Source: an uncultured Poribacteria bacterium (GTDB lineage: Bacteria > Poribacteria > WGA-4E > WGA-3G). Taken from it: a stretch of DNA of 64,000 bases. The translations under genes and the position numbers were made by a program. Within the stretch, counting starts at the first letter, position 1. Every line of letters begins with the position of its first letter. This document shows, in pieces, positions 16,877-17,221 of the stretch. Under the pieces are notes generated by a model. It did not search any database. It was given only the letters and a program-made list of their open reading frames with translations, and was not told the DNA's origin. The stretch covers positions 3,360,001 through 3,424,000 of the forward strand of contig OX638351.1 in NCBI GenBank assembly GCA_951813565.1, written 5' to 3'.

Positions 16877-17221
16877 GAGGGGTGTGTATAAATATTTGGC
16901 GCATTAACACAGACAGGGACAGACGCCAGGTGCCGCTTGATTTATAGAAATGCGTTTGTAGTCGCGCAATTCATTGCCAAATCAACGCAGCATGCGCCAA
17001 ATCAAGAAATCAACGGTATGAATCATGGCGAATCATGTAGAATACCAAAAGCGTATTCTACCAAGCACATTCGTCTTTAGTCATTCACCGGGTCCGAATG
17101 CCTTATGGCATTCCCCGTGTGGCATGCTGCGCCTCTTTGAACTTGTGGACGGAAACCCACGGCGTGTGCCTATTACCTTTAAGCGCATATTTAACATCGG
17201 AATTATTTATGCACACCCCTC
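16877..17221. mobile_element. 345-bp MITE with nested hairpin elements
   Basis: 18-bp TIR GAGGGGTGTG(T/C)ATAAATA; 9-bp flanking repeat aattatctt/aattgtctt; absent from the homologous copy1-copy2 spacer. Confidence 0.85.

Follow-up and report, generated by a model that had tools for sequence, protein, structure and literature searches.

A family of very small hairpin repeats nested in REPs, a MITE, genes and its own copies in one genus of Poribacteria

The small dispersed repeats (SDR) of Nostoc, reportedly described by Elhai et al. in 2008, are said to be structured, mobile sequences of 21 to 27 nt, some of them self-nested, and we know of no enzyme that moves them. One of them, SDR5, has a single, exact insertion position within HIP1 (PMC4390886). 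Repeats of the REP/BIME/REPIN type, associated with the RAYT (TnpA-REP) transposases of the Y1 HUH class, are short bulged hairpins with a conserved unpaired 5' tag that are present in hundreds of mostly intergenic copies, have neither terminal inverted repeats (TIRs) nor target site duplications (TSDs), and occasionally occur in frame within genes (PMC8266576, PMC3333891, PMC3116915, PMC6006769). The available part of PMC6006769 lists RAYT classes and in-frame REP inserts. The CGTC-tagged REPs are likewise tagged palindromes, some of them in frame in genes, for which the available text reports no dedicated transposase (PMC3733652).

The units described here, from an uncultured, sponge-symbiotic member of the Poribacteria, are a real, undescribed variant of such very small structured mobile repeats; within the literature covered, which excluded most subscription journals, we found no description of the family in Poribacteria. 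Their nearest precedent is the Nostoc SDR, which, as described in the available text, are also very small, structured, mobile and without a known enzyme (PMC4390886, PMC3116915). Judged by that description, the unit is set apart by its different phylum, larger size (33 to 36 versus 21 to 27 nt), fixed head and loss of target bases at one junction. It behaves like a REP, being a palindrome in the 20- to 50-nt range with many mostly intergenic copies, but departs from REPs in its tag and cognate gene: in place of the GTAG/GTGG 5' foot it has a 7- to 8-base head of its own, and no RAYT flanked by it was found at the 68 Y1 loci inspected (186 matches in the genus). In further contrast to REPs, it moves as a singlet, lands in REPs and in itself, inserts at a target centered on C^G, and is joined at a variable 5' end, where target bases are lost. 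The CGTC-tagged REPs have a different tag, and the available text describes dimers and clusters and does not contain the word "nested" (PMC3733652). The ends and nonautonomous derivatives of IS200/IS605 elements share with the unit a single-strand hairpin signal and the absence of a TSD, but they have two hairpin ends and a tetranucleotide target and lose no bases, whereas the unit has one hairpin only and a target consensus of 1 to 2 bases, with base loss in 32 of 83 contexts. Finally, although the 345-bp carrier of the locus is a MITE of a DDE insertion sequence (IS), the units themselves have neither TIRs nor a target duplication.

A five-layer stack carried by a MITE

The window is the whole 64,000-nt stretch that was analyzed; G000 denotes a whole genome of 5.43 Mb in one contig. 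At positions 16978 to 17130 of the window, a 153-nt insert interrupts a GTAG-type REP (Table 1). As the initial annotation had stated, excision of the insert gives an exact 28-base match to the uninterrupted sequence at 54203 to 54230 (the cut point can slide by three bases, over 16975 to 16978), and the insert has an outer hairpin and an inner insert at 16998 to 17116. Where two layers had been recognized, there are five: three "head plus hairpin" units (A, B, and C) and two shorter, inverted, head-less ones (D and E), the innermost pair being of a different, 25- to 28-nt type. Unit A interrupts the REP, the loop of A holds B, and C sits at the foot of B, followed by D and E. The copy at 54203, previously taken for an empty-site control, is a sibling REP in an unrelated context; the pre-insertion allele of this type of locus is an empty, 189-bp version of the MITE, which is found at G000:251518 and G000:2030879.

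Table 1. Coordinates of the stack, its host repeat, its carrier and related repeats in the window
Feature	Positions	Strand	Basis or state
MITE of 345 bp with 18-bp TIRs, carrying the whole stack	16877..17221		TIRs, TSD, parent IS
5' segment of the GTAG-type host REP, ending with the C of the C^G step	16958..16977	+	Same family flanks RAYT in G003, G045
Unit A, 5' half (head at 16980-16987 and 5' stem arm); outermost, 34 nt when intact	16978..16997	+	
Unit B, head; B is 35 nt and sits in the loop of A	16998..17005	+	69-nt A+B state known
Unit C, 5' part; at the foot of the hairpin of B, one C replaced	17006..17023	+	
Unit D, part 1; head-less inverted hairpin within C, net +25 nt (boundaries counted by hand)	17024..17033	-	129-nt state
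Unit E, the innermost; another inverted head-less hairpin of 28 nt (net +24)	17034..17061	-	153-nt state
Unit D, part 2	17062..17075	-	
Unit C, 3' arm and end	17076..17090	+	
Unit B, hairpin and end	17091..17116	+	
Unit A, 3' arm and end	17117..17130	+	
Host REP, 3' part, starting at the G of the C^G step	17131..17138	+	
Second REP of another RAYT-associated family, inverted, within the MITE	17148..17176	-	Same family flanks RAYT in L055, L058, L059
Uninterrupted sibling of the host REP; outside any MITE, not an orthologous empty site	54203..54230	+	

The stack region folds better than any of 200 shuffles (z = -3.84). Intact units of the A type number 103 and those of the B type 90, an intact unit A is present in the MITE at G000:4122087, and the state with both D and E is found in 38 copies. 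Among public contigs, there is a joint of 17005 to 17091 with a single C between them, possibly originating from a paralog, and a joint of 17023 to 17076; over two stretches, public contigs break at repeats and are uninformative on strain polymorphism. The window holds more unit copies or stacks, in other REP hosts, at 22570 to 22602 and 57978 to 58077. It also encodes repeat proteins at 52331 to 54046 and 35703 to 37100 (periods of 126 bp and 66 bp).

The host repeat (16958 to 17138) is a normal REP, accompanied in two relatives by a RAYT of its own: it has the GTAG foot and the palindrome, and a RAYT flanked by the same repeat is encoded in G003 and G045 (loci L049 and L057), none having been seen beside this REP family in G000 itself. 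The 20-mer of the host REP occurs in 174 copies in G000, 60 of which have the unit head at the same step, far more than chance would explain.

The carrier has all that defines a MITE: TIRs, a TSD, and a parent IS whose ends match its own. There are 29 TIR-bounded copies, 18 of them with an exact 8-bp TSD (7 of 8 bases in the flagged copy, with an offset of one base); three longer TIR-bounded copies hold the gene for a PF01609 transposase or its remains, and the parent IS, of 1135 to 1138 bp, encodes a 333-aa protein of this family. The flagged copy lies between the second and third of three tandem paralogous open reading frames (ORFs) of about 1000 aa (window 10701-13700, 13805-16822 and 17332-20352), of which the two that were scanned encode secretins. 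In G003 and G020, the matching pieces are only about 60 bp apart.

Among 39 copies picked by the left flank of the MITE, 3 contain no layer, 4 have one layer (2 of these are aberrant), 13 have two, 5 have three, 5 have four, and 9 have all five. Of 19 TIR-bounded copies from relatives, none is filled at the flagged site, 5 have the same REP intact, and 2 have units elsewhere. In a midpoint-rooted tree of 23 rows, the filled clade (100/98) excludes the two empty G000 copies; the empty state is therefore ancestral, and the stack was multiplied by the MITE. The filled clade is mostly open in the tree, and the stack states do not group: the same MITE backbone carries different states, and one clade pairs a one-layer copy with a five-layer copy. 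Since the states are discordant with the backbone tree, layers were also exchanged or lost without new insertion, and reading the copies as a one-way time series was rejected for the same discordance. The DDE-driven MITE copied the finished stack. The initial annotation had named two findings that would refute its idea, one of them being that the motif is a fixed part of one larger known repeat; that one applies to the stack, which here is MITE cargo, but not to the unit.

That the stack is MITE cargo, that its layers were exchanged or lost in discordance with the backbone tree, and that chimeric and doubled-head units are numerous all speak for an account without any dedicated enzyme, in which a small number of old insertions would have multiplied through template switching, through gene conversion and as passengers of REPs and MITEs. 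Such spread surely contributes among paralogs.

Anatomy and distribution of the unit

The unit consists of 0 to 2 variable bases, the fixed head, a stem (about 9 bp) whose 5' arm is bulged, and a closing C,G, for a total of 33 to 36 nt. A subtype-aware pattern detects 988 to 990 heads in 487 clusters in G000, and a pattern blind to pairing detects 268 units there versus 2 in the reversed genome. Stem positions are paired in 87% of cases versus 71% in column shuffles, with none of 1000 shuffles reaching the observed value, a figure that is not a probability because the sequences are related and that comes from 107 of 130 distinct sequences kept because 5 or more of their 8 pairs form, a selection that itself raises pairing. 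Several alternative Watson-Crick pairs are found at four stem positions, and the bulged stem is maintained by compensatory change. Mismatches on the head strand comprise 43 A.C and 22 G.T, which, in this set of related sequences, favors folding of the opposite strand.

The second, head-less type of 25 to 28 nt has the same hairpin core and occurs inverted inside units and also in a few REPs, its flanks being seen through a pattern that presupposes them. At G000:C1:1377901-1377939 and at 502438, there are palindromic forms with a head at both ends of one hairpin, which are a possible route to the inverted head-less type. Locus L179 (1501-2292) contains eight units in tandem, mostly at 86-bp spacing, and is probably an amplified filled REP. 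A search of Rfam gave no match for the unit at the gathering score and only two sub-threshold hits.

A single-pattern scan yields 742 matches in G000 and 34 to 615 matches in 24 of 24 genomes of the genus (controls, 6 to 16), of which G009, with 34, is borderline. In 16 genomes from other families of the order, there are 12 to 32 matches (controls, 1 to 20), and those listed are unlike the unit. The 5 of 64 parts of the GTDB collection that were scanned contain 112 loci, 111 of them titled Candidatus Poribacteria and one "uncultured bacterium." A scan of viruses returned two matches, with the hairpin in neither. In these scans, the unit family is confined to one Poribacteria genus. Of the public runs that best hold this DNA, two are labeled as sponge metagenome.

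Junctions and landing sites

The units are mobile, since REPs, the units' own copies, and genes all occur both with and without an insert. This bears out the earlier proposal of a mobile family of very small size that lacks TIR and TSD and enters its own copies; filled and empty alleles occur genome-wide and, in the comparison across relatives that the same annotation had recommended, between species at orthologous coding sites. An in-frame copy of 36 nt is present in the lipoate-ligase gene in 3 of 25 loci examined, the other 22 being empty (38 genomes matched), and one of 33 nt near the start of the 8-oxoguanine glycosylase gene in 14 of 25 (3 of them degenerate), with 11 empty. Further in-frame copies are found in a gene for a DDE transposase and in a transporter gene. 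Locus L123 (1501-1533) is an insertion into a unique site at a T^G step, the G000 ortholog of which, near 363065, is empty.

Among 273 exact contexts, 83 have an empty allele, which was required to occur three or more times. By a tally made by hand, the unit was inserted cleanly in 44 of these, at C^G in 39 and at G^G in 5; in 7, bases are added on the right side only, and in 32, the target is short of 1 to 3 bases, although the 83 contexts are not independent and some of the losses may be later mutations. The 3' junction of the unit is fixed, lying before a G and mostly at C^G, and the 5' junction is variable, with 0 to 3 target bases lost. The two bases that precede the head vary and in part track the hairpin subtype. 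The right flank is G-rich, with G followed by G in most events.

A rule by which the unit replaces exactly two bases fits some G-led events and fails on the 44 clean insertions.

Recombinases with a two-base core, of the IS110 or IS607 type, could account for replaced bases through mismatched cores. At the glycosylase site, the target's two bases are on the right with C,G on the left in most species, as such a mechanism would have it, and G000 has three IS607-type serine recombinase elements. Yet the ends of these elements are unlike the unit, and IS110 domains were found in none of 40 genomes (a second IS110 domain is also absent from G000), so that the unit does not qualify as an IS110/IS1111 derivative. 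Moreover, the net length change is inconstant for one unit length. A double-stranded circle of 33 bp is mechanically implausible. This explanation is largely disfavored and very improbable.

The 90 contexts in G000 include 32 inside the unit's own copies and 58 non-self sites. With the empty sites rebuilt by the fixed two-base rule and a window of 44 nt, 23 of the 58 non-self sites fold at -4 kcal/mol or below, versus 24% of 600 intergenic controls (p = 0.003), and a GTAG/GTGG tag is near 31 of the 58, versus 25% of controls. However, at 26 of the 58 the insertion point falls between unpaired bases, and some of the sites are simply coding DNA. The hairpin preference of the landing sites is therefore real but modest, which supports in part the earlier statement that the family "targets hairpin DNA." Orientation shows no bias relative to neighboring genes (103 sense, 129 antisense; p = 0.10) or to GC skew (195 of 379).

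Enzyme-free spread, as set out above, is unlikely to be the whole explanation, as it fits poorly with the roughly 119 distinct landing contexts that remain after collapsing flanks and with the insertions into coding DNA at unique sites, where only 1 to 2 bases are shared and yet the boundaries are the same. It also has to face G013, where a member of this MITE family bears an unlike stack elsewhere, namely in its second REP (L338; G013:C33:17025-17308).

Candidate enzymes and a tentative mechanism

Genes for Y1 transposases are found in 36 of 40 genomes of the genus. Of the 70 Y1 loci that were fetched, 68 were inspected, and none has cognate unit flanks; they are flanked by GTAG-type or other REP-like repeats or by IS605 ends, with units present only as inserts in these. 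A Y1/RAYT or IS110 gene flanked by the motif, which the initial annotation had proposed to look for, was thus not found at these loci or, for IS110, in the 40 genomes; mobilization of the HUH type (Y1/RAYT), suggested by its comparison of the unit with single-strand substrates of such enzymes, is accordingly no more than inferred. Four genomes, G001, G010, G023, and G024, have units (78 to 269 matches) but no Y1 match, and G017 has 607 unit matches and one RAYT. The genus has many distinct RAYT classes, each with its own flanking REP family (L046-L065, L261-L300), and some of its RAYT genes contain in-frame REP copies. G000 also has IS605 elements and one tyrosine recombinase; no Ku was found in it.

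The persistence of units genus-wide, whichever RAYT is present, the mismatch bias toward opposite-strand folding, and the lack of a cognate known enzyme could be explained by a dedicated, unrecognized enzyme, either a divergent HUH/rolling-circle protein or another one, perhaps acting on the opposite strand. On that strand, the element would have a fixed 5' start, a hairpin, and a terminus 8 to 10 bases beyond it that varies by 1 to 2 bases. A local Y1 profile, however, revealed no additional Y1 gene in G000, no gene bracketed by orphan ends, as expected of an autonomous copy, was seen among the 115 orphan heads listed, and a Y2 search gave no match, with its controls silent too. We consider such an enzyme unlikely.

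Junction asymmetry of the kind seen here resembles that of primed insertion, as does the G-rich right flank, and G000 encodes two reverse transcriptases (RTs). A small-RNA template copied by target-primed reverse transcription would leave one precise junction, with 1 to 3 shared bases, and an opposite junction at which bases are gained or lost. This mechanism is rather improbable: RTs are encoded in only 18 of 40 genomes and in none of the high-copy genomes G017, G006, G012, and G014 (369 to 607 unit matches); none has the unit as a fixed neighbor, one stray copy being present at 3 of 28 RT loci; and there is neither an orientation bias to transcription nor a TSD. The unit thus lacks the fixed linkage expected of a retroelement derivative. 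At G000:C1:3988991-3992061, a 465-aa RT is encoded directly upstream of a gene that we take, from its sequence, to be cas1-like, beside a CRISPR-like array, and a stand-alone RT of 511 aa, presumably related to retrons or abortive infection systems by its look, is encoded at G000:C1:811749-813284. Small contigs of G055, G015, and G016 contain many long RT frames, possibly from host retroelements in the bins.

Tentatively, and at somewhat less than even chances, we propose that the units move as single-stranded DNA through RAYT/HUH strand transfer in trans, catalyzed by one of the many REP-associated RAYTs of the genus or by a lost relative. The anatomy of the unit, its covariation, its asymmetric junctions, and its enrichment near REPs are observed; we infer that the intermediate is single-stranded, where the cuts fall, that the foot serves as a guide, and which enzyme is at work. 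The enzyme would bind the folded unit and cut at its 3' foot. The free 3'-OH of the unit would then attack a target strand held as a 5'-phosphotyrosine at a G, producing the clean right junction, and the free 3'-OH of the target would be trimmed and joined to the less precisely cut 5' end, producing the loose left junction. The guide that selects C^G would be the two terminal bases of the unit's foot (16986 and 16987, C then G).

Several properties of characterized RAYTs are compatible with this scheme. According to the available text of PMC8266576, RAYTs of one group need a bulged stem, the cut dinucleotide is chosen by pairing with the foot tetranucleotide, and RAYTs can ligate the cut strand to an attacking oligonucleotide that is supplied. 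From that pairing rule, C|G is predicted from the foot of the unit, although the guide argument is partly circular because the same two bases also close the stem; the natural RAYT cuts described in the available text are C|T and C|A, and C|G is not among them. The BIME model, as far as presented in the available text, attributes variation to the use of alternative cut sites and to trimming of the 3'-OH and has inverted REP pairs permitting the cutting of both strands (PMC3333891), and the latter fits the missing orientation bias of the units.

In favor of RAYT-mediated transfer are the clean right and loose left ends, the conserved bulged stem, the enrichment of GTAG/GTGG tags near landing sites, and the representation of Y1 in 36 of 40 genomes, against 0 for IS110 and 18 for RT. 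Against it are the lack of a cognate Y1 locus among the 68 inspected and the four genomes with units but no Y1 match, the lack of a GTAG/GTGG foot in the unit, the many left ends, with T or G before the first G, that fit no C-led cut, and the mismatches that favor opposite-strand folding when the model folds the head strand.

A bolder and unlikely interpretation is that the unit represents a new class of minimal mobile DNA, a single-stranded "oligo-transposon" of 33 to 36 bases in which one hairpin would serve as both ends and its bottom two base pairs as the target guide. Moved by an unrecognized enzyme or by many hijacked RAYTs, it would parasitize REPs, MITEs, IS genes, and housekeeping genes alike.

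The unit family touches on the question of how REP-sized DNA spreads in vivo: its substrates are short and defined, its junctions carry two signatures, the predicted guide can be tested, and the Y1 candidates form a finite panel. At this locus, there are three tiers of parasitism, a unit in a REP in a MITE, and elsewhere in the genus the inserts add 11 to 12 in-frame residues to conserved proteins and persist across species.
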